Positions 1 to 39,417 of a DNA stretch of 39,417 nt are shown piece by piece. The notes under the pieces were generated by a model. The model was not told the DNA's origin, ran no database searches, and worked only from the letters and a program-made list of their open reading frames with translations. The position numbers and the translations under genes are program-made. This DNA is from a virus. Its lineage: Duplodnaviria; Heunggongvirae; Uroviricota; Caudoviricetes. Numbering within the stretch: the stretch's first letter is position 1; every line of letters begins with the position of its first letter. Where the stretch lies: IMG/VR virus record IMGVR_UViG_2671181055_000004. One strand, 5' to 3'.

Positions 1-70
1 TCGGTTTACGGGAAACGGTAAACAGGGCGGCGAATGCTCTGCCATCGGACGGCACCGCCGTTGCCGCGAA
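1..70. repeat. Left inverted repeat of the invertible tail-fiber segment (window starts inside the crossover site)
   Basis: nt 1-70 is the reverse complement of 1250-1319 with one mismatch (position 38 vs 1282); weaker similarity continues to about 130 bp. Confidence 0.85.
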
Positions 71-362
71 TAGACTCGCCACCCCAAGAAATATTAATGG
101 GGTTCCCTTTGACGGGACGCAGGACATAAACATCACTTCTGGTATAACACAGCAGGATGCGGATTCCCGATATATCCAGGATATCAGGCTGGGAGCAGAG
201 AACAGGCAGGTAATGTACGGTGGGGCATATTACTCTGCGTACGGTAATGTTATGGCAGGCCTGCAGATTGACAGTAAAGTTGATGCTTCAAACGATTTTA
301 TAGCATTCAGACCCCTGCAAAAATTAGTCGGAGGTACATGGATTACGGTATCTCAGTTATAA
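1..362 (+). CDS. Tail fiber protein, variable C-terminal segment (Sv-like; 5' partial, fused to a constant part outside this contig)
   Basis: Open frame from position 3 to TAA at 360-362; translation ...ETVNRAANALPSDGTAVAANRLATPRNINGVPFDGTQDINI... shows tail-fiber repeat motifs; no start codon because the frame enters through the inverted repeat. Confidence 0.7.
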   Translation, partial: GLRETVNRAANALPSDGTAVAANRLATPRNINGVPFDGTQDINITSGITQQDADSRYIQDIRLGAENRQVMYGGAYYSAYGNVMAGLQIDSKVDASNDFIAFRPLQKLVGGTWITVSQL

Positions 363-413
363 ATAGTCAGTAAATAATATATTTTAAAACAGATTTATTT
401 CCAGGAGGATTTT

Positions 414-935
414 ATGGAACTAAAAAATATAACCCGTTATTATCCTGAAAATATGCCATATGGTAATAATGTTCAGTATTTCCAGAGTGAAGATGGTAAG
501 GATTTCTACGAATCCCTGCCATTATTCACCAAAAAATATAAACTTTGCATAACACCTGACAGCGGCGTTATCTGCTCAATATCACAGGACGCCTCGGCGC
601 TGTATCCTGCGGGGTTTTCTGTGGTTGAGGTCGATGAACTCCCTGAAGGCACGGATATTTCAGGAAACTGGAAGTTTGATAATGGCATAATCTCCCGTAT
701 TCCGGTTAACTACGCAAGAAAACTGGAAGCAATGCGCCAGTCATATCTTAATCAGGCATATGAAAAAATTAATGACTGGAGAACGGAGCTACAACTGGGC
801 ACCATCAGCGATGAAGACAGAGCAGCACTTACCCAATGGATGGCATACATCAGTCAGGTGAAGAAAATGGAACTACCCGCCATTAAAACAGAAGCTGAAT
901 TTAACGCCATTAAATGGCCTGAGCAGCCACAGTAA
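414..935 (+). CDS. Tail fiber assembly chaperone (Tfa / Mu U-like)
   Basis: 173-aa ORF directly after the tail-fiber C-terminus; C-terminal region resembles the Tfa family; lower GC than surrounding genes, typical of tfa. Confidence 0.8.
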   Translation: MELKNITRYYPENMPYGNNVQYFQSEDGKDFYESLPLFTKKYKLCITPDSGVICSISQDASALYPAGFSVVEVDELPEGTDISGNWKFDNGIISRIPVNYARKLEAMRQSYLNQAYEKINDWRTELQLGTISDEDRAALTQWMAYISQVKKMELPAIKTEAEFNAIKWPEQPQ

Positions 936-966
936 TAAAGAAGGCCGGAAGGCCTTCTGAATATCA

Positions 967-1317
967 TTATATACTTGCAGCCGTCACCCATGCTCCATTT
1001 AACAGATACTGCAACGGCCGGTAATACACGCCGCCGACGTTATCTGCCGTATTCTTACCGACATCCTGTACTTTAATTCCGGTAAGAACATTGCCGCCCC
1101 CCAGATTCAGATCCCAGCTTTCCCATGTTCCGGGCATATGTGCGGTCACCGACCCCAGTCTTATGGCGGTTACTGTTCCTGATGAGATAGTGATATCCTG
1201 CGTCCCGTCAAAGGGAACACCATTAATTGTGTGGGCATTTGCCAGCCTGTTCGCGGCAACGGCGGTGCCGTCCGATGGCAGGGCATTCGCCGCCCTGTTT
1301 ACCGTTTCCCGTAAACC
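967..1317 (-). CDS. Alternative tail-fiber C-terminal segment (Sv'-like), no own start codon, expressed only after inversion
   Basis: Minus-strand frame open from the inverted repeat (GLRETVNRAANALPSDGTAVAANRLANAHTINGVPFDGTQDITI...) to the stop at 967-969; N-terminal 23 aa are almost identical to the plus-strand Sv segment. Confidence 0.65.
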   Translation of the reverse strand, partial: GLRETVNRAANALPSDGTAVAANRLANAHTINGVPFDGTQDITISSGTVTAIRLGSVTAHMPGTWESWDLNLGGGNVLTGIKVQDVGKNTADNVGGVYYRPLQYLLNGAWVTAASI

Positions 1318-1319
1318 GA
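1250..1319. repeat. Right inverted repeat of the invertible tail-fiber segment
   Basis: Reverse complement of window 1-70. Confidence 0.85.
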
Positions 1320-1331
1320 GGTTTTCAGGAA
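1306..1331. promoter_or_regulatory. gix/hix-like recombination site (12-bp imperfect inverted half-sites flanking a 2-bp core at 1318-1319)
   Basis: TTCCCGTAAACC-GA-GGTTTTCAGGAA at the outer edge of the inverted repeat, next to the invertase gene; layout resembles Gin/Hin crossover sites (recalled, not aligned). Confidence 0.55.
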
Positions 1332-1396
1332 AGCCAGGATTAACTCTGTTTTATTCCTCATGCGACAATTCCGGCTTTTTATAATAAGGAAATCGT

Positions 1397-1969
1397 ATGC
1401 TGATTGGGTATATCAGGGTGTCAACAAATGACCAGAATACGGCGCTACAAAGAAATGCGCTGGAATGTGCAGGATGTGAGCTGTTTTTCGAAGACAGAAT
1501 AAGCGGTAAGACAAGGGAGCGTCCCGGACTTAAACGCGCATTAAAGCGACTCCGGCCAGGGGATACCCTGCTGGTCTGGAAACTGGATCGCCTTGGACGC
1601 AGTATGCAGCACCTTGTCCTTTTAACAGAAGAACTCCGGCAACGCGGCGTTAACTTCCGCAGCATTACGGACAATATTGATACATCCACTCCCATGGGAC
1701 GTTTCTTTTTCCATATAATGGGCGCGCTGGCGGAAATGGAGCGGGAACTCATTATTGAACGTACACGCGCGGGTCTTGCTGCTGCCCGTGCTCAGGGGCG
1801 TCATGGCGGCAGACCTCAGAAACTGACAGAGAAAGAGCGGGAGCAAATCGCCCGTTTGCTGGCTAATGGCGAGTCCCGTAAACAAATCGCACTGATATTT
1901 GATATTGGCCTTTCCACCCTTTATCGTTATTTTCCTGCCTCACCAGCTCCGTCACCAAAAGTACCGTGA
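1397..1969 (+). CDS. gin: Serine DNA invertase (Gin/Pin/Cin/Hin family)
   Basis: 190 aa, N-terminal MLIGYIRVSTNDQNTALQRNAL... with catalytic-serine region and C-terminal HTH (STLYRYF); close to my recall of Mu Gin; sits immediately outside the invertible segment. Confidence 0.9.
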   Translation: MLIGYIRVSTNDQNTALQRNALECAGCELFFEDRISGKTRERPGLKRALKRLRPGDTLLVWKLDRLGRSMQHLVLLTEELRQRGVNFRSITDNIDTSTPMGRFFFHIMGALAEMERELIIERTRAGLAAARAQGRHGGRPQKLTEKEREQIARLLANGESRKQIALIFDIGLSTLYRYFPASPAPSPKVP

Positions 1970-2054
1970 CGCTTTTTTGAATTTCCGCAAAACACATATT
2001 TTTCAGCGGTCGCTATTCTGACTCTGTTTAATTCAGAAACAGGCAGAAAAGACG

Positions 2055-4109
2055 ATGTCAGACTCCAAGTGGAAAATGCTCTCCGCCATGCCCGGAGAGT
2101 TTTCAGTCAAGGTTGCCGGTGGCACGGTGGCATTTATTGAAAGCCCTTTCCGCCCTTCGGGTAATAAAGGGGGGATCACCTTCGCAGACTGCGTGATCCG
2201 CTTCAGCACGAAAGAGCCATTATGGGTAATGCCGGTATCCGGTAATCCCAGTGCAGAAATCACCAGTTCAGGCGTGACTGGCATCATTCCAATCACATCT
2301 GACGTGGCCGGAACGCTCACGCCCTCCGACTGGAATGCACCGGATAACGCCGGGCCTTCCGGTAGCACGAATGGCAGCAGTTCAGAGCCGGAATATTACT
2401 TTGTTGTCATTCTCGCGGGTCAGTCAAATGGCATGGCCTACGGCGAGGGGCTGCCGTTACCGGATTCGTTTGACCGCCCGGACCCACGCATTAAGCAACT
2501 GGCACGCCGCAGTACGGTAACGCCCAACGGTACGTCGTGTACATACAACGACATCATTCCGGCAGACCACTGCCTGCATGATGTTCAGGATATGAGCGGG
2601 ATAAACCACCCGAAAGCTGATCTGGCAAAAGGCCAGTACGGGACTGTCGGTCAGGGGTTGCATATTGCCAAAAAACTGCTTCCCTATATCCCACAGAATG
2701 CCGGGATACTTCTGGTGCCCTGTTGTCGTGGCGGGTCAGCATTCACCACTGGAGCCGACGGCTCATTCAGTGAGGCCAGCGGTGCTTCCGCTGATTCTTC
2801 ACGCTGGGGGGCCGGTAAACCTCTGTATCAGGACCTGGTAAGCCGCACCAAAGTCGCGCTGGCGAAAAACCCGAAAAACAAACTTCTGGCTGTGGTCTGG
2901 ATGCAGGGAGAGGCAGACCTTGCCTCAGGAAGCCAGCAGCATAATAGTTTATTCACGGCCATGGTTCAGCAGTTCAGAACTGACCTGGCTCCGCTTGCTG
3001 CGCAGTGCGTGAGTGGAAATGCCACCACGGTGCCGTGGATTTGCGGTGATACCACGTATTACTGGAAAAACGCTGGCACCGATAAATATGAGGCAGTATA
3101 CGGTGGCTACAAAGGCAAGGAAGCACAGAAAATTTTCTTTGTACCGTTCCTGACGGATGAGAATGGACAGAGCACGCCAACGAATGCTCCGGCGGAAGAC
3201 CCGGATATTGTGGCTGTCGGGTATTACGGTGCAGCATCCCGAACCCAGGGCAGTTTTGTTTCGACACAGCGTGACAGCCATTTCAGCTCATGGGCACGCA
3301 GGGGCGTCATTTCAGACCGTCTGGCCTCAGCTATTATGCTCCATGCAGGGCGCACGGCTGAACTGATGCGTGGGCAGACCGTGACACCACCGGATGAGAA
3401 GCCGTCACCTGATACACCATCAAAACCGTCCACGCCACCCGCAGACACCACGACGATGAGTACGCTATTTGCTTACCGGGCATCTGAGTCTGAAGGACGG
3501 TTGACACCACAGGGTTGGGCTGCCGGAGGTGGCAAGGCTCAAATCGTGGATGATGCCGGAGCCAGCGGGGGTAAGGCAATGAAACTGACCAAGGAAACAG
3601 GAAGAGCCCCCTGGTACCTTGAGCATGATGCTGGTAATGGTGCGGACCTGCTGGGTAAAGGTGGTCTTGTCAGTTGTCGTTTTAAACTCGATGGCGCGCT
3701 TACGGCTAATCAGTACGCACTGGCGCTGTACTGGCCGGTTTCTGCCCTGCCGCAAGGGGTTACTCTGGAAGGAAATGCCGGTCATAACCTGCTGGCATCG
3801 TTCTACGTACAGAGCGATGCCACAGACCTTAACGTGATGTATCACAAAGGAAACACGGCGCAGAACACGAAGCTGGGGTCATTCGGCGCATTTAATAACG
3901 AATGGCATACGCTGGGCTTCCGTTTTGCCGGTAACAACAGTATTGAGGTGACGCCGGTCATTGATGGTAAGGACGGGACACCATTCATGCTGTCGCAGTC
4001 TCCGGTCGGCACGTTTACGGCAGACAAGTTGCGCGTGACCGATATCACTAAAAATGCGACTTACCCGGTACTGATTGACAGTATCGTGGTGGAAGTGAAT
4101 AACGCGTAA
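2055..4109 (+). CDS. SGNH/SASA-type carbohydrate O-acetylesterase with Pro/Thr-rich linker and C-terminal beta-sandwich-like domain (NanS-p-like sialate O-acetylesterase candidate)
   Basis: 684-aa ORF with RBS-like AGGCAGAAAAGACG before the ATG; motifs FVVILAGQSNGMAYGEG and VVWMQGEADLASG resemble sialate O-acetylesterase/DUF303 blocks; linker PPDEKPSPDTPSKPSTPPADTTT. Confidence 0.55.
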   Translation: MSDSKWKMLSAMPGEFSVKVAGGTVAFIESPFRPSGNKGGITFADCVIRFSTKEPLWVMPVSGNPSAEITSSGVTGIIPITSDVAGTLTPSDWNAPDNAGPSGSTNGSSSEPEYYFVVILAGQSNGMAYGEGLPLPDSFDRPDPRIKQLARRSTVTPNGTSCTYNDIIPADHCLHDVQDMSGINHPKADLAKGQYGTVGQGLHIAKKLLPYIPQNAGILLVPCCRGGSAFTTGADGSFSEASGASADSSRWGAGKPLYQDLVSRTKVALAKNPKNKLLAVVWMQGEADLASGSQQHNSLFTAMVQQFRTDLAPLAAQCVSGNATTVPWICGDTTYYWKNAGTDKYEAVYGGYKGKEAQKIFFVPFLTDENGQSTPTNAPAEDPDIVAVGYYGAASRTQGSFVSTQRDSHFSSWARRGVISDRLASAIMLHAGRTAELMRGQTVTPPDEKPSPDTPSKPSTPPADTTTMSTLFAYRASESEGRLTPQGWAAGGGKAQIVDDAGASGGKAMKLTKETGRAPWYLEHDAGNGADLLGKGGLVSCRFKLDGALTANQYALALYWPVSALPQGVTLEGNAGHNLLASFYVQSDATDLNVMYHKGNTAQNTKLGSFGAFNNEWHTLGFRFAGNNSIEVTPVIDGKDGTPFMLSQSPVGTFTADKLRVTDITKNATYPVLIDSIVVEVNNA

Positions 4110-4123
4110 GCAGGATAAAAAAA

Positions 4124-4158
4124 TGCCGCCGGTAAGGGAAAACAAGAAACCGGCGGCA
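4124..4158 (-). terminator. GC-rich hairpin with adjacent A/T tract (terminator-like when read on the minus strand)
   Basis: TGCCGCCGGT ... ACCGGCGGCA stem (10 bp) with a 15-nt loop, preceded on the plus strand by a run of A (a T-run 3' of the stem on the minus strand). Confidence 0.3.
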
Positions 4159-4253
4159 AAAAGATCGTTATATCCAAAGCAAAAAATGCAGTGCACCTTT
4201 TTACCTAACAGATATTACCGGTGTCAACACCATGTCAATAATTGGGAGGGATA

Positions 4254-4436
4254 ATGACATTTTTACAGCTTATTTTATTGTATTTCTGCACGGCAGTATG
4301 TGCGTTATATCTGGTGAGTGGTGGTTATAAGGCCATCAGAAATTATGTTCGCCGCAAAATTGAGGACGCAGCAGCTGAAAAACTCAGTAAAACAGCGCAG
4401 GTAACTCCGCTCCCAAAAGACCCGACCCAGCCCTGA
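4254..4436 (+). CDS. Small membrane protein (60 aa, one predicted TM helix, basic/charged tail)
   Basis: ATG at 4254 with GGGAGGG 4 nt upstream; MTFLQLILLYFCTAVCALYLVSGGYKAIRNYVRRK...; alternative TTG start at 4242. Confidence 0.4.
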   Translation: MTFLQLILLYFCTAVCALYLVSGGYKAIRNYVRRKIEDAAAEKLSKTAQVTPLPKDPTQP

Positions 4437-4471
4437 TTGCAGGGCTTTATTCCCGCATAAGGAGGATATAC

Positions 4472-4726
4472 ATGCCAGAAATTAAAGGCACCGTCACTGA
4501 AGACCTGGTAAAACAGGCACTGTATTCCGGTGAAGTAAATAAGTTGCTGAAAGCGCAGGTCCGCAAGGATTTTGAGGCACAAATCGACACTTACGTTGAT
4601 GAAGTGCTGGCAAAACTTATTGGGCCAGCAGTTGCGGCCAGTGATGCTGATAATGAGCCGAAAACCGACGCGCAGCCAGAGCAACCAGACCCGGCTCAGC
4701 CCGGAACTGACAGTACCATGATGTAA
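4472..4726 (+). CDS. Hypothetical 84-aa protein with acidic Pro-rich C-terminus
   Basis: Strong SD AAGGAGG 6 nt before ATG 4472; followed by a hairpin at 4733-4758. Confidence 0.5.
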   Translation: MPEIKGTVTEDLVKQALYSGEVNKLLKAQVRKDFEAQIDTYVDEVLAKLIGPAVAASDADNEPKTDAQPEQPDPAQPGTDSTMM

Positions 4727-4732
4727 CAATAC

Positions 4733-4758
4733 AAACCGGTGGTGTCCTCTGCCGGTTT
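4733..4758 (+). terminator. Hairpin after the 84-aa ORF (weak terminator candidate)
   Basis: AAACCGG-(12 nt)-CCGGTTT; the T-run is short. Confidence 0.3.
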
Positions 4759-4893
4759 GACACTAATGAAAACATCTTTGCCGCTATCCAGCCATATGTA
4801 ATCGCTGGATAGTATTTCGTATTCAGAAATATAGCTGCTTATGGAGCAGTCAATCCTGCTTCCCCATCCGGGCAGGCAAATGAACCGGTATCA

Positions 4894-5187
4894 TTAGTCC
4901 GATTCACGCTTTTGTAGAATCGTTCCCAGAATGCTATACAGCTCATTAGCCTGTTGCTCCATCATTGAGACGGAGGCTATACGGTGCAAAGTGATTTCAG
5001 GAGGTGGCACACCTCCATCTTCTTGCTGTGGAGGAAAAACATAAGATTTAATAAAAAAGTTGAAGCATATGAACTCTCCCGCACTCGAACTGTATTTGCA
5101 GGCATCTGAATAATCGGAAAAATAATCATTATAGATTTCCGCATTTTCAATCATTTTTCGATTTCTCGTCGTTACATGATTGTCCAT
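4894..5187 (-). CDS. Hypothetical 97-aa protein in a low-GC island, divergent from com/mom
   Basis: ATG at 5187 with AGAGG 6 nt upstream; surrounding 4740-5440 is visibly AT-rich compared with the phage backbone; no recognisable domain. Confidence 0.45.
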   Translation of the reverse strand: MDNHVTTRNRKMIENAEIYNDYFSDYSDACKYSSSAGEFICFNFFIKSYVFPPQQEDGGVPPPEITLHRIASVSMMEQQANELYSILGTILQKRESD

Positions 5188-5262
5188 AGCAGCCTCTTAC
5201 GCTGGCAATTAACCAATTGACTTCTATAAATTAGTTGATTTGTTTGCTTTGCGGTATTCAAA

Positions 5263-5270
5263 TGTACAAT
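5263..5270 (+). promoter_or_regulatory. Extended -10-like element (TGTACAAT) upstream of com/mom; possible Pmom-type promoter
   Basis: TGnTACAAT in the AT-rich intergenic region about 175 bp upstream of the com start; no good -35, as expected for an activator-dependent promoter. Confidence 0.25.
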
Positions 5271-5377
5271 CATTCAGCACTTATGCGTTACAGCACCGTT
5301 TAAAATTAGTGATCAAACTCATAAATTTTCGCTAATGACATTTCGTGTTATTTGTTGTATCAATTAAATAAATCAAA

Positions 5378-5400
5378 TCGATCGTTTTTGTCGATCGATT
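5378..5400. promoter_or_regulatory. Palindrome carrying two GATC (Dam) sites just upstream of com
   Basis: TCGATCG-tttttg-TCGATCGAT; GATC at 5380-5383 and 5393-5396. Confidence 0.4.
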
Positions 5401-5443
5401 GAGTGATAAAGATATCAACAACAAAGCAGGAGGTTATGCGGCC

Positions 5444-5644
5444 ATGTATCGAAACATACGGTGCCGACATTGTAACAAGCTACTGGCACGAGCCAGCTTC
5501 AGTTATCTGGAAGTTAAATGTCCGCGCTGTAAAACCCTCAATCAAATCACATCTCAGAGCGCCACAGAGCACCCCACATACACAAGGAAATCCTGTCGTG
5601 GGGAACAGAAAGCAAGTTACATCCCGTATCATCAGCACGCCTGA
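5444..5644 (+). CDS. com: Com-like zinc-finger translational activator of mom
   Basis: 66 aa, [34 protein letters not shown]... with CxxC...CxxC zinc finger; SD AGGAGG upstream; overlaps the downstream mom frame as in Mu. Confidence 0.75.
5572..5603 (+). promoter_or_regulatory. mRNA stem-loop sequestering the putative mom SD and GTG start (candidate Com-responsive translational switch)
   Basis: CCCCAC (5572-5577) pairs with GTGGGG (5598-5603); the loop contains AAGGA 9 nt upstream of GTG 5598. Confidence 0.45.
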
Positions 5645-6335
5645 ACTTATTCACTATAACGACAATATCGTCGGTTATGGCTCCCGTGAGTTACGGGTTG
5701 AGACAATAAGTTGCTGGCTGGCCCGGCTGGTCGTCGTCAATAAACATTACAGCCATCGTTTCGTAAATAATTCCTACCTTCATCTGGGCATATTTTCAGA
5801 ACGGGAGCTGGTTGGCGTAATGCAATGGGGTTATGCCCTTAATCCAAACAATGGTGCACGCGTCGTAACTGGCACGCAGAACCGCGAATATATGGAGCTT
5901 AACCGGTTATGGCTGCATGACTGTATGCCGAGAAACTCCGAATCAAGGGCAATCAGTTACGCGCTCAAACTAATCAGACAACTTTATCCGCAGGTGCAGT
6001 GGGTTCAGTCGTTTGCAGATGAGCGTTGTGGCTGTCTTGGTGTCGTGTACCAGGCAAGCAATTTTGATTATGTAGGCAGTCATGAAACAACATTCTATGA
6101 ACTTGATGGCGAGTGGTATCACGAGATTTGCAAGAATGCAATCAAACGAGGAGGACAGCGAGGTGAACATCTGCGGGCTAATATCGACAGAGCCAGTGTT
6201 CATAAATTCCGTCAGTTTCGTTACATCCGGTTTCTGGACAAGAGAGCCAGAAAACGCCTTAACACAAAGCTATTCAAAGTCCAGCCTTACCCAAAACCAC
6301 AAACAGTTAAAACTGGTTTGAAAGAGAGTGAATGA
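5598..6335 (+). CDS. mom: Mom-like DNA modification protein (start inferred at GTG 5598; the long upstream frame from 5403 is not a separate product)
   Basis: Long ORF ending at 6335 directly before the phage right end; overlaps the com 3' end in another frame; 245 aa from GTG 5598, close to my recalled size of Mu Mom (about 230-240 aa). Confidence 0.65.
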
Positions 6336-6370
6336 ACGCTTAAAAACTCATTCTAAAACTCAAAAGAAAA

Positions 6371-6411
6371 GCGCCGATTTAGTATCAAATAAGTTGCGTA
6401 TCGGCGTTTTT
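6371..6411 (+). terminator. Hairpin followed by T5 after mom (terminator candidate; the loop contains the innermost end repeat)
   Basis: GCGCCGAT ... ATCGGCG followed by TTTTT at 6407-6411; the loop is long (about 21 nt). Confidence 0.3.
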
Positions 6412-6463
6412 CAGCGGTATCAAATGAAATGCAAATCGGTATCAAAAAAATCGCCGCGCTATA
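6380..6463. repeat. Right-end terminal transposase-binding repeats (three GGTATCAAA-type sites) and phage terminus
   Basis: AGTATCAAATAAG (6381-6393), CGGTATCAAATGAAA (6414-6428), CGGTATCAAAAAAA (6437-6450); the same motif is repeated three times at the other phage end (38634-38797); terminal 27 bp align in register with the other end as an inverted repeat. Confidence 0.65.
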
Positions 6464-6548
6464 GACAGCCTAAGCGGCTGCTGACCTCCCTGACCATGCT
6501 GTAAATCTCTTTATCCTGGTTGTCACAGAATAAGCCCGGTAAAATACG
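6464..6548 (+). mobile_element. IS66-family element, 3' remnant of tnpB (host side of the insertion)
   Basis: 6466-6504 encodes QPKRLLTSLTML-stop, which joins in frame to the truncated TnpB ...GIDWR at 38810 once the shared GACA is counted once. Confidence 0.6.
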
Positions 6549-6798
6549 NNNNNNNNNNNNNNNNNNNNNNNNNNNNNNNNNNNNNNNNNNNNNNNNNNNN
6601 NNNNNNNNNNNNNNNNNNNNNNNNNNNNNNNNNNNNNNNNNNNNNNNNNNNNNNNNNNNNNNNNNNNNNNNNNNNNNNNNNNNNNNNNNNNNNNNNNNNN
6701 NNNNNNNNNNNNNNNNNNNNNNNNNNNNNNNNNNNNNNNNNNNNNNNNNNNNNNNNNNNNNNNNNNNNNNNNNNNNNNNNNNNNNNNNNNNNNNNNNN
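6549..6798. other. Assembly gap (250 N)
   Basis: Run of n characters. Confidence 1.
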
Positions 6799-7166
6799 AC
6801 GTCAGCGGGACCAAGACTGTTTTTTGTGGCAAGCGTCCCCAGACCAAGATAACCACGGGCCAGACGCTGGGCCTCCGCACCGGCATCAGCAATTTCTTTC
6901 AGGTTATTTTTCCGGGAAAAGGCATTCGCAGCGATAATGGCTTTAATGGACAGCGTAAGCTGGTTTAACTGCGCCTTATCCGGCTGAATACTGGCTTCAG
7001 CCAGAATATTCAGCAGTTCGGCCTGGAGAATATTCAGCCAGTCCTGACCAATCCAGCTGATACCTTTTTGTCCGTCACCTTCGGTAAACCAGGTGGTGGT
7101 ATTACTCTGCGCCGGTGCCAGCGCAGGCATATTCGCCACGCCGGAATTATTATCAACATGAAACAT
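6799..7166 (-). CDS. Tail fiber protein, N-terminal constant part (3' truncated by the gap)
   Basis: ATG at 7166; MFHVDNNSGVANMPALAPAQSNTTTWFTEGDGQKGISWIGQDWLNILQAELL... resembles tail-fiber N-terminal domains; the frame runs into the N gap. Confidence 0.7.
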
Positions 7167-20579: not shown

Positions 20580-20756
20580 ACCGGCAGCATAAGCCGGGTA
20601 TTTTTGGGGCTGGTTTTGCGGGACTTCAGAAAGTGCTGACAGGGGGGGAATGAGAAAGGCGCTTCACGCAGATTTTAAAGCCCGTTAAATACAGGTTAGA
20701 AAATCACGACACGCGCCTGAAGGGGGTAAGGTAATACGTTTGCATACCTTAAACCA

Positions 20757-28741: not shown

Positions 28742-28812
28742 TGTTACGCTGTCTCATGGTGTTCTCTGAGTCAGCGTAACCGTGAGGAAAAGGGGGCAGG
28801 ATTTGCGGAATA

Positions 28813-38633: not shown

Positions 38634-38807
38634 CAGTATCAAATGAGTTGCCGATTTTATAATAAATGACTAATTATTGCACAATCGGTATCAAATAGAC
38701 CTTATCCGCACATCTAGCCATCACCTGTTTTATTTCAGTATCTTACAGGTGATTTCACCTCCTTTCACTAAACCCCTTGTCGGTATCAAATGATTCACCT
38801 GGTTATA
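38634..38807. repeat. Left-end terminal transposase-binding repeats (three GGTATCAAA-type sites), a 9-bp-stem inverted repeat, and the phage terminus
   Basis: CAGTATCAAATGAG (38634-38647), CGGTATCAAATAG (38685-38697), CGGTATCAAATGATTCA (38781-38797); inverted repeat ATCACCTGT/ACAGGTGAT at 38721-38753; terminus at 38807. Confidence 0.65.
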
Positions 38808-39118
38808 TGTCGCCAGTCGATACCTTCCAGCAGCATCGCCAGCTGCGCCTGTGTAAGGAACACTTTGCCATCACGGGCTGACGGCCAGGCGAAGCGCCCA
38901 CGCTCCAGCCGTTTGGTCAGGAGGCACAGTCCGTCACTGGTGGACCACAGCAGTTTAACCTGACTGCCGCTGCGGCCCCGGAAAATGAAAACATGGCCGG
39001 ACATGGGATCGTCTTTCAGCGCCGTCTGTACTTTCGCAGCCAGGCCGTTGAAGCCATTTCTCATATCGGTGATACCGGCAACCAGCCAAATTTTGATCCC
39101 GGAAGGTAACGGGATCAT
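38795..39118 (-). CDS. tnpB: IS66-family TnpB (orf2), 3' end disrupted: last four codons and stop come from phage DNA
   Basis: MIPLPSGIKIWLVAGITDMRNGFNGLAAKVQTALKDDPMSGHVFIFRGRSGSQVKLLWSTSDGLCLLTKRLERGRF... is a typical IS66 TnpB sequence (recall). Confidence 0.8.
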   Translation of the reverse strand: MIPLPSGIKIWLVAGITDMRNGFNGLAAKVQTALKDDPMSGHVFIFRGRSGSQVKLLWSTSDGLCLLTKRLERGRFAWPSARDGKVFLTQAQLAMLLEGIDWRHITR

Positions 39119-39417
39119 CGCTTCAGTTCCTGTATCAGCAGAGTCAGGAGCTTTTCGCTGACATTGCCATTGAAGCGGAGCGTCCCGTGCCGGAACGTTA
39201 CCTCACAGCTGATACTGAGGGTTTTCGGGTCCTCTGCGAGCGATTCTGGCTGTTCGGCAGCTGCATCGAGAGTCACAGGAAGTAGCTGGGGGCTCTCTGA
39301 AGAAGGTAATAGCTGAGGTGTACTGGCAATAGCGGACACTACCATTTGTTCTTTTTTTAAGCAGCCATCTGATGATATTTTTCCCTGAAGGCTGCCGGGG
39401 AGATATTCCCCAGACGA
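38808..39417 (-). mobile_element. IS66-family element (tnpA-tnpB), interrupted in tnpB by the prophage
   Basis: tnpA/tnpB pair with overlapping stop/start (ATGA); tnpB is cut at ...GIDWR and its 3' end is found beyond the other phage end at 6464-6504. Confidence 0.65.
39115..39345 (-). CDS. tnpA: IS66-family accessory protein TnpA (orf1), possibly N-terminally longer
   Basis: 76-aa ORF translationally coupled to tnpB; assigned by synteny rather than by a recognised motif. Confidence 0.5.
   Translation of the reverse strand: MVVSAIASTPQLLPSSESPQLLPVTLDAAAEQPESLAEDPKTLSISCEVTFRHGTLRFNGNVSEKLLTLLIQELKR

Follow-up and report, generated by a model that had tools for sequence, protein, structure and literature searches.

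Anatomy of the invertible segment

The stretch of DNA analysed here (the window, that is, the whole 39,417 nucleotides of IMG/VR virus record IMGVR_UViG_2671181055_000004) is a Mu-like prophage of the Escherichia coli/Shigella type, and its positions 1-1330 are an invertible host-range segment of 1.32 kb, of the Gin type, that swaps the tip of the tail fibre (a 'mini-G' segment). An earlier note, made from the letters alone, had described two alternative fibre C-termini and a single tail-fibre assembly gene (tfa) in an invertible segment; this description holds, and an invertase gene was found adjacent to the segment. The boundaries are formed by inverted-repeat arms of 79 nucleotides (nt) at 1-79 and 1241-1319, which are 95% complementary; they contain the 70-nt repeats with one mismatch that had been reported, the sole mismatch within 1-70 being at position 38. 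A second, weaker repeat block pairs 93-142 with 1178-1227 (84% complementary).

On the plus strand, in reading frame 3, the variable C-terminal part of fibre protein S (Sv, 119 residues plus stop) occupies 3-362, with its stop codon at 360-362, and carries a tip of the Mu S type. It is followed by a spacer of 51 nt (363-413, plus strand; 78% A+T) that contains an AGGAGG Shine-Dalgarno sequence, and then by the single assembly gene, tfa (414-935, plus strand), which encodes a 173-residue homologue of Mu U. The alternative C-terminal part of S (Sv', 116 residues plus stop) is on the minus strand at 967-1317, with its stop codon at 967-969 and its frame closed upstream by a stop at 1351-1353; its tip is of the Mu S' and phiTE short tail fibre type. 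These positions agree with the placement first proposed for Sv, tfa and Sv', and the residues after the crossover, which had been called nearly identical, are identical in both arms for the first 26. Only 31 nt separate the stop of tfa (935) from that of Sv' (967), and they form an 8-bp GC-rich hairpin at 939-958 (-14.8/-14.4 kcal/mol), a terminator common to the convergent tfa and Sv' that scores as such on the minus strand, 3' of Sv'. There is accordingly no room for a second tfa in the segment, as the note had stated, and a hidden Markov model (HMM) scan of every open reading frame (ORF) in the window recovered one tfa and two tips, with no second tfa elsewhere in the prophage.

The right crossover site (gix) is complete, with 26 bp at 1305-1330 (TTCCCGTAAACC-GA-GGTTTTCAGGAA). 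The left site is represented at 1-14 by its TC core and inner half-site GGTTTACGGGAA, its outer half being cut off by the window edge; relatives supply it in full as TTATCGATAACG-TC-GGTTTACGGGAA, so that (with the left site completed in this way) the segment has the two inverted 26-bp sites with a shared 2-bp core that define an invertase system. The gin gene (1397-1969, plus strand) encodes a serine DNA invertase of 190 residues that is 74% identical to Mu Gin, has its catalytic serine (Ser9) in YIRVSTNDQ, within MLIGYIRVSTNDQ, and belongs to the invertase family by its profile matches (Pfam Resolvase, 1.6e-51; HTH_7, 4.9e-15). By recombining the two inverted gix sites, Gin joins the constant 5' region of the fibre gene (Sc) either to Sv, followed by tfa, or to Sv', followed by the terminator only. 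The arrangement of a constant N-terminal part outside and two convergent C-terminal parts inside is that of the Mu-type switch (with Sc displaced in the window), but the assembly gene that follows each C-terminal part in a Mu-type switch is here present once only.

Sc aligns with residues 1-191 of Mu S (independent E-value about 1e-44). For the Sv tip the match is to residues 435-502, the tip of Mu S (independent E-value 1e-4), and for the Sv' tip it is to the phiTE short tail fibre at its C-terminus (9cuy_c; 1.6e-9), with a weaker match to the Mu S' tip; compared with fibre ends by tblastn, the Sv' tip also finds those of P1 (5e-19), SfMu (5e-16) and a P2-like phage (2e-15). The two tips are about 35% identical to each other and have in common the motif RLG...G.V.TG...(F/Y)RP.Q...G.W.T, which lies in a C-terminal domain of about 70 residues, and the tip HMM matches both ORFs of the window. 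To judge from these matches, Sv and Sv' are paralogues in the distal-tip family of Mu S/S', P2 H and P1 S. The Tfa protein belongs to Pfam family Caudo_TAP (PF02413; 4.8e-19, 69.2 bits against a cut-off of 22.1) and matches Mu U (5yvq_B; 4.2e-16) over residues 18-153, which include both domains.

An annotated tfa stands directly 3' of the fibre gene for Mu S, Mu S', a P2-like phage, P1, POP15 and Av-05, and an unannotated ORF of 194 residues takes the tfa position in 19-1-2; the gap between fibre gene and tfa is -1 to 17 nt in the seven comparison pairs from six phages. The statement that Mu and P1 have a tfa for each arm was thereby confirmed. Because a tfa or a candidate tfa adjoins the fibre gene in every other phage checked, this comparison argues that the tip fold requires Tfa. 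The tip HMM gave no match on the Gin-homologue loci of other genera, because the tips there belong to other families.

Inversion and conservation of the one-tfa layout

The segment inverts in nature, and both joined forms occur. Near-identical copies (99.4-100%) are present in both orientations in complete E. coli chromosomes: the sister strains FORC_043 and FORC_069 (L015) both carry the prophage at one elfC/PapC site and with an intact gin, and Sc is joined to Sv in the former and to Sv' in the latter. Junction probes run on 5426 complete genomes detected Sc-Sv in 7 and Sc-Sv' in 24; the exact Sc-Sv protein (296 residues) is encoded on 271 public contigs and the exact Sc-Sv' protein (293 residues) on at least 997, a lower bound, which makes Sc-Sv' the commoner joined form in the databases. 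The prophage type as a whole is present on thousands of public E. coli/Shigella contigs. Sister strains, complete genomes and contigs therefore all give a positive answer to the check for both orientations that the note had proposed. They also dispose of the idea that faulty assembly produced the repeats and the segment, to which we attach practically no weight: the window does consist of two non-collinear pieces joined by 250 N, and it does start exactly at a crossover core, but the presence of the segment at 99.4-100% identity, in both orientations, inside complete finished chromosomes has already refuted this idea. In three of the Sc-Sv genomes gin is frameshifted. Among the prophages of DLI.5a (L001), TOE17 (L003) and AST46 (L016), several copies with Sc-Sv joined combine a frameshifted gin with the loss of long internal stretches of the late region, so that, for instance, DUF2730 or the sheath gene is joined to a fragment of gp48; DLI.5a has, in addition, a second copy of the prophage type in which Sc is joined to Sv'.

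The same layout (S, tfa, terminator hairpin, convergent Sv', gin) was found in four further loci at 76-94% DNA identity, namely CI5, STEC2018-553, CP55_Sichuan and a Mu-like element inside Shiga toxin (Stx) phages, with S of 296-299 residues and tfa of 173 codons' worth of protein in each; the one-tfa layout is kept in five diverged loci, and an equivalent hairpin lies at the matching place in all five. Among the Sv' alleles of loci L017-L020, which are 68-85% identical and lack a tfa of their own throughout the clade, the ratio of nonsynonymous to synonymous divergence (dN/dS) is 0.09-0.12 at a proportion of synonymous differences (pS) of 0.48-0.77, that is, at near-saturated synonymous divergence. 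The allele of the window, which has a nine-residue deletion, gives dN/dS of 0.24-0.36 against the same four. A stop codon or frameshift in Sv', which the note had suggested looking for, is present in none of the five diverged alleles. These substitution patterns indicate that Sv' is functional and kept by purifying selection. The Mu-like clade stands out in that its one-tfa state is old, conserved and under selection. The suggestion that Sv' might be a decaying module did not survive this analysis: it is ruled out by a dN/dS of about 0.1 at near-saturated synonymous divergence, and it is also contradicted by the fact that Sc-Sv' is the commoner form.

A related proposal, which we consider highly improbable, takes the Sv' orientation for an OFF state or one of low infectivity, or takes Sv' for a decaying remnant left after loss of a second tfa. 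Where two tfa genes were present, one does seem to have been lost or truncated repeatedly. We surveyed 37 enterobacterial loci with Gin as query, 20 of which have at least 4 kb of upstream sequence; among these 20, two convergent Caudo_TAP ORFs were found in 10, one detectable in 7, and 3 were not phage-like. One of the one-tfa loci, that of Siccibacter turicensis (L029, P2-like), was verified in detail. It resembles the segment described here in having perfect 27-bp inverted repeats around a 1.7-kb segment, a Gin homologue (75% identical), two convergent fibre ends and one Caudo_TAP ORF, and it differs in having tips of other families and in that its tfa-less tip is the one currently joined; since the sister species (L028) keeps two tfa genes, the state of L029 seems to have arisen by recent loss and not to be a conserved design. 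Enterobacter loci retain just an N-terminal fragment of 84-86 residues of one tfa, and the AST46 copy of the locus is truly decayed. From the survey cases we conclude that loss of one tfa from invertible fibre segments recurs. For the clade of the window, however, the Sv' ORFs are intact with dN/dS of 0.09-0.12 over near-saturated synonymous divergence, at least 997 contigs carry the window's own Sv' allele in fusion with Sc, and a terminator is correctly placed after Sv'.

Two side observations belong to these loci. The fragment in the P2-like Enterobacter loci L039, L044 and L048 (at about 4920-5180) is an ORF of 84-86 residues (...NENGEPILVD...) by the tail-fibre end, beside a full-length tfa, and it resembles the N-terminus of a Tfa of the lambda type, the conserved C-terminal domain being absent. 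In CP55_Sichuan (L019), the spacer of 120 nt between Sv and tfa (2388-2507) retains a remnant of a different Sv allele, from its 3' end, which aligns with the ...GSWITVSQL-stop of the window type and therefore indicates replacement of the tip cassette by recombination.

One assembly protein and two tips

How Sv' particles obtain their assembly protein, if they need one, is the question raised by this layout. Our tentative preference, with a probability somewhat short of even, is that the single Tfa serves both tips and is expressed whichever way the segment lies. Tfa would then be a generalist that folds or caps the Sv and the Sv' tips, and it would be made in either orientation because tfa is uncoupled from the fibre gene, being preceded by the spacer, which provides a separate ribosome-binding site and, probably, a weak promoter. 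Replicative transposition would raise the gene to about 100 copies, and for this reason weak transcription could be sufficient to supply the few hundred Tfa molecules needed.

The evidence for this preference comes from the protein and from the spacer. Residues 1-85 of Tfa correspond to the domain with which Mu U binds the fibre, as PMC9608196 describes with reference to North et al. 2019. Over these residues, Tfa is 73-98% identical across the five loci, while at the same loci the Sv tips are 26-47% identical and the Sv' tips 43-85%; the N-terminal domain is constant where the tips vary, and therefore does not track a particular tip. The spacer between Sv and tfa measures 51-120 nt in the five alleles and is rich in A+T in four of them (75-78%; 57% in L019), compared with 54% for the whole segment; at 51 nt it is unusually long relative to other phages of this fibre/Tfa type, in which tfa abuts the fibre gene. 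A hexamer resembling a -10 element was found 26-41 nt before the tfa ATG in all five alleles (by a lenient scan). Sharing of Tfa is thus suggested by three features together, namely a constant N-terminal domain, a C-terminal motif common to both tips, and a tfa that is uncoupled from Sv.

Several observations weigh on the other side. The promoter candidates before tfa are weak (matches of 3/6 and 5/6), and chance matches of this kind are expected in A+T-rich DNA; in a consensus promoter scan of the tfa strand, nothing upstream of tfa reached the threshold. The segment contains no copy of CCGCAAAnCCnGCCCC, a late-promoter motif that we deduced from the operons for lysis and head proteins. The terminator between Sv' and tfa means that read-through yields no sense tfa RNA, and in Mu the genes in the off orientation are silent. 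Finally, conservation of the Tfa N-terminal domain could have other causes.

In a different explanation, Sv' folds and works without Tfa and the switch alternates between a Tfa-dependent, capped Sv and a chaperone-free Sv'. When Sv' is joined, tfa is antisense, lies behind a terminator and has no convincing promoter; the Sv' alleles of L017-L020 form a conserved type of their own that never occurs with a tfa in the clade; and Sc-Sv' is the commoner form in lysogens, which suggests that Sv' particles infect successfully. We nevertheless regard a Tfa-free Sv' as unlikely, if worth serious attention, because all other members of the tip family that we examined, Mu S' and the tips nearest to the Sv' type (those of Av-05, 19-1-2 and POP15, a member of the phiTE group) included, have an adjacent tfa or an ORF in that position, and because Sv' has the C-terminal motif in common with Tfa-dependent tips. 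It is correspondingly doubtful, though conceivable, that Sv' is the first tip of the Mu S/P2 H/P1 S family to assemble without any tail-fibre assembly protein.

Sv' might instead be folded in trans, by the Tfa of other prophages or by that of a second copy of the same prophage type lying in the other orientation. E. coli genomes have several tfa genes each, DLI.5a has two prophage copies of which one is Sc-Sv and the other Sc-Sv', and the C-terminal domain of Tfa is conserved across phages (PMC9608196). A phage that depended on its host in this way would not, however, be expected to keep Sv' at a dN/dS of 0.1 across diverged lineages, and the fibre-binding N-terminal domains differ among unrelated Tfa proteins; we judge help in trans to be improbable, and the generalist Tfa remains the reading that we prefer.

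Two observations made in the course of this comparison concern the mosaic history of tfa and the late promoters. In the clade Tfa proteins (window and L017-L020) the N-terminal part is 73-98% identical and the C-terminal part 45-92%, the reverse of the family pattern; between the window and L018 the Sv tip is 99% identical and the Tfa C-terminal domain 45%, so that tfa is itself mosaic. Perfect copies of CCGCAAAnCCnGCCCC lie at 28793-28808 (minus strand), before the lysozyme gene, and at 20606-20621 (minus strand), before the protease and head genes, with no other perfect copy in the window; they are probably boxes for a late activator of the C/Mor family.

Each tail-fibre assembly protein is customarily regarded as a partner that is obligatory and specific to its fibre, which constrains the swapping of tips in engineered phages and tailocins. 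If one Tfa serves both tips and many alleles, it is a portable generalist chaperone. If Sv' is Tfa-free, it shows how the tip fold escapes chaperone dependence, the switch toggles the Tfa cap at the fibre tip together with receptor specificity, and capped and uncapped paralogues, side by side, would reveal the residues that cause chaperone dependence. The clade is chiefly a natural test case for Tfa specificity. We found no paper on a one-tfa invertible segment in the literature searched; the one-tfa switch is a refinement of a well-known system and not a new kind of system, and it is common in public genomes but has apparently not been remarked on.

Related switches and the setting of the segment

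The closest known system is the G segment of Mu (S-U/U'-S', gin). The two systems cross over at one and the same point of the fibre protein (NxGLxETVN), Gin is 74% identical, Sc, both tips and Tfa are homologous to Mu S, the S/S' tips and U, respectively, gin directly adjoins the segment on its right, and the prophage end carries com/mom. The segment described here differs in length (1.3 kb versus 3 kb), in its variable parts (about 117-119 residues versus about 320-330), in having one tfa and no equivalent of U', in its A+T-rich spacer of 51 nt between Sv and tfa (2 nt in Mu), and in an esterase module of the NanS-p type between gin and com/mom. That module includes a gene at 2055-4109 (plus strand) for a 684-residue protein with SASA and DUF6645 domains, 63-68% identical to the yjhS/NanS-p 9-O-acetyl-N-acetylneuraminic acid deacetylase of Stx phages, and small ORFs to about 4730; with its DUF1378 and DUF826 genes 3' of the large gene, it is a cargo module of lambdoid type in a Mu-like prophage.

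The C segment of P1 (cin) and the Min region of plasmid p15B are likewise serine-invertase switches of fibre C-termini with tips of the same family, but P1 has a tfa after each of its two convergent fibre ends, and in p15B there are several sites for crossover. E. coli K-12 has two annotated tfa genes, tfaP and tfaE. In the P segment of the K-12 element e14 (pinE), an invertase of the Pin/Gin family flips a short segment and thereby alters the 3' end of a tail-fibre gene (PMC4272514); e14 differs from the prophage described here in being a lambdoid, defective element with another stf/tfa type. The Ein-mediated inversion of carotovoricin Er (Nguyen et al. 2001) is cited in PMC13195805 and PMC4272514. 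Carotovoricin Er is similar in that an invertase (Ein) exchanges the C-terminus of the fibre on a contractile tail, and the target range changes with it; it is different in being a tailocin instead of a phage, its fibre belonging to the P2 type. The fragment inverted in carotovoricin Er is reportedly about 0.8 kb long, a size that would leave no room for a tfa in each arm, and this inversion may be a precedent for a one-tfa switch.

The minus strand of the window carries the repressor, the transposase genes A and B, and the head, tail and baseplate genes, which extend from about 38.8 kb to gp48 at 7166-7726. The 5' part of the constant region of S (Sc; 6799-7166, minus strand) follows and borders a run of 250 N at 6549-6798, which splits the prophage into two pieces (1-6548 and 6799-39417); the last approximately 162 nt of Sc and the outer half of the left gix are missing or hidden by this run. 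Positions 1-6463 (the segment, gin, the esterase module, com/mom and the right phage end) are on the plus strand, flipped relative to the late genes, whereas all complete genomes examined have the single-strand order gp48, S, segment, gin, esterase, com/mom and phage end. With Sc on the other strand beyond the N run, the window is not collinear with the complete genomes; no Sc lies upstream of position 1, and as given the window has neither Sv nor Sv' joined to Sc.

Mis-scaffolding is much the more likely cause of this arrangement than a real inversion of 6.5 kb. The prophage is inserted within tnpB of an ISEc8/IS66 element, and its two IS66 flanks (6464-6548 and, from 38798 onward, 38798-39417) read on opposite strands, which fits the first piece having been turned round. 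Position 1 of the window falls exactly on the core (TC) of the left crossover site, and the outer half-sites of the two gix sites differ from each other, so that reads of mixed orientation would diverge at position 1 and a contig of the assembly graph would end there. We also considered a real Gin inversion through a pseudo-site in ISEc8 and judged it unlikely: no gix-like site lies at the required distance, and a start exactly at the core is better explained by an assembly branch point. The attR-IS66 junction had 0 matches as an exact pattern in viral_contigs and genome_contigs, no record was found for the fusion ORF that spans it, and BLAST against complete E. coli genomes gave no full-length match to it.

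On the attL side, the truncated TnpB fusion of 107 residues (38795-39118, minus strand) is found in about 110 blocks of public assemblies, and the insertion therefore marks a widely sequenced lineage; the complete genome CP176614.1 carries this fusion protein. About a dozen enterobacterial draft contigs likewise start 70-190 nt upstream of a Gin homologue (the contigs that start near the homologue being L030, L035, L037, L038, L040, L043, L046, L047, L049, L050, L052, L056 and L060), which is where the crossover site lies, and breaks between contigs are apparently often due to invertible segments.

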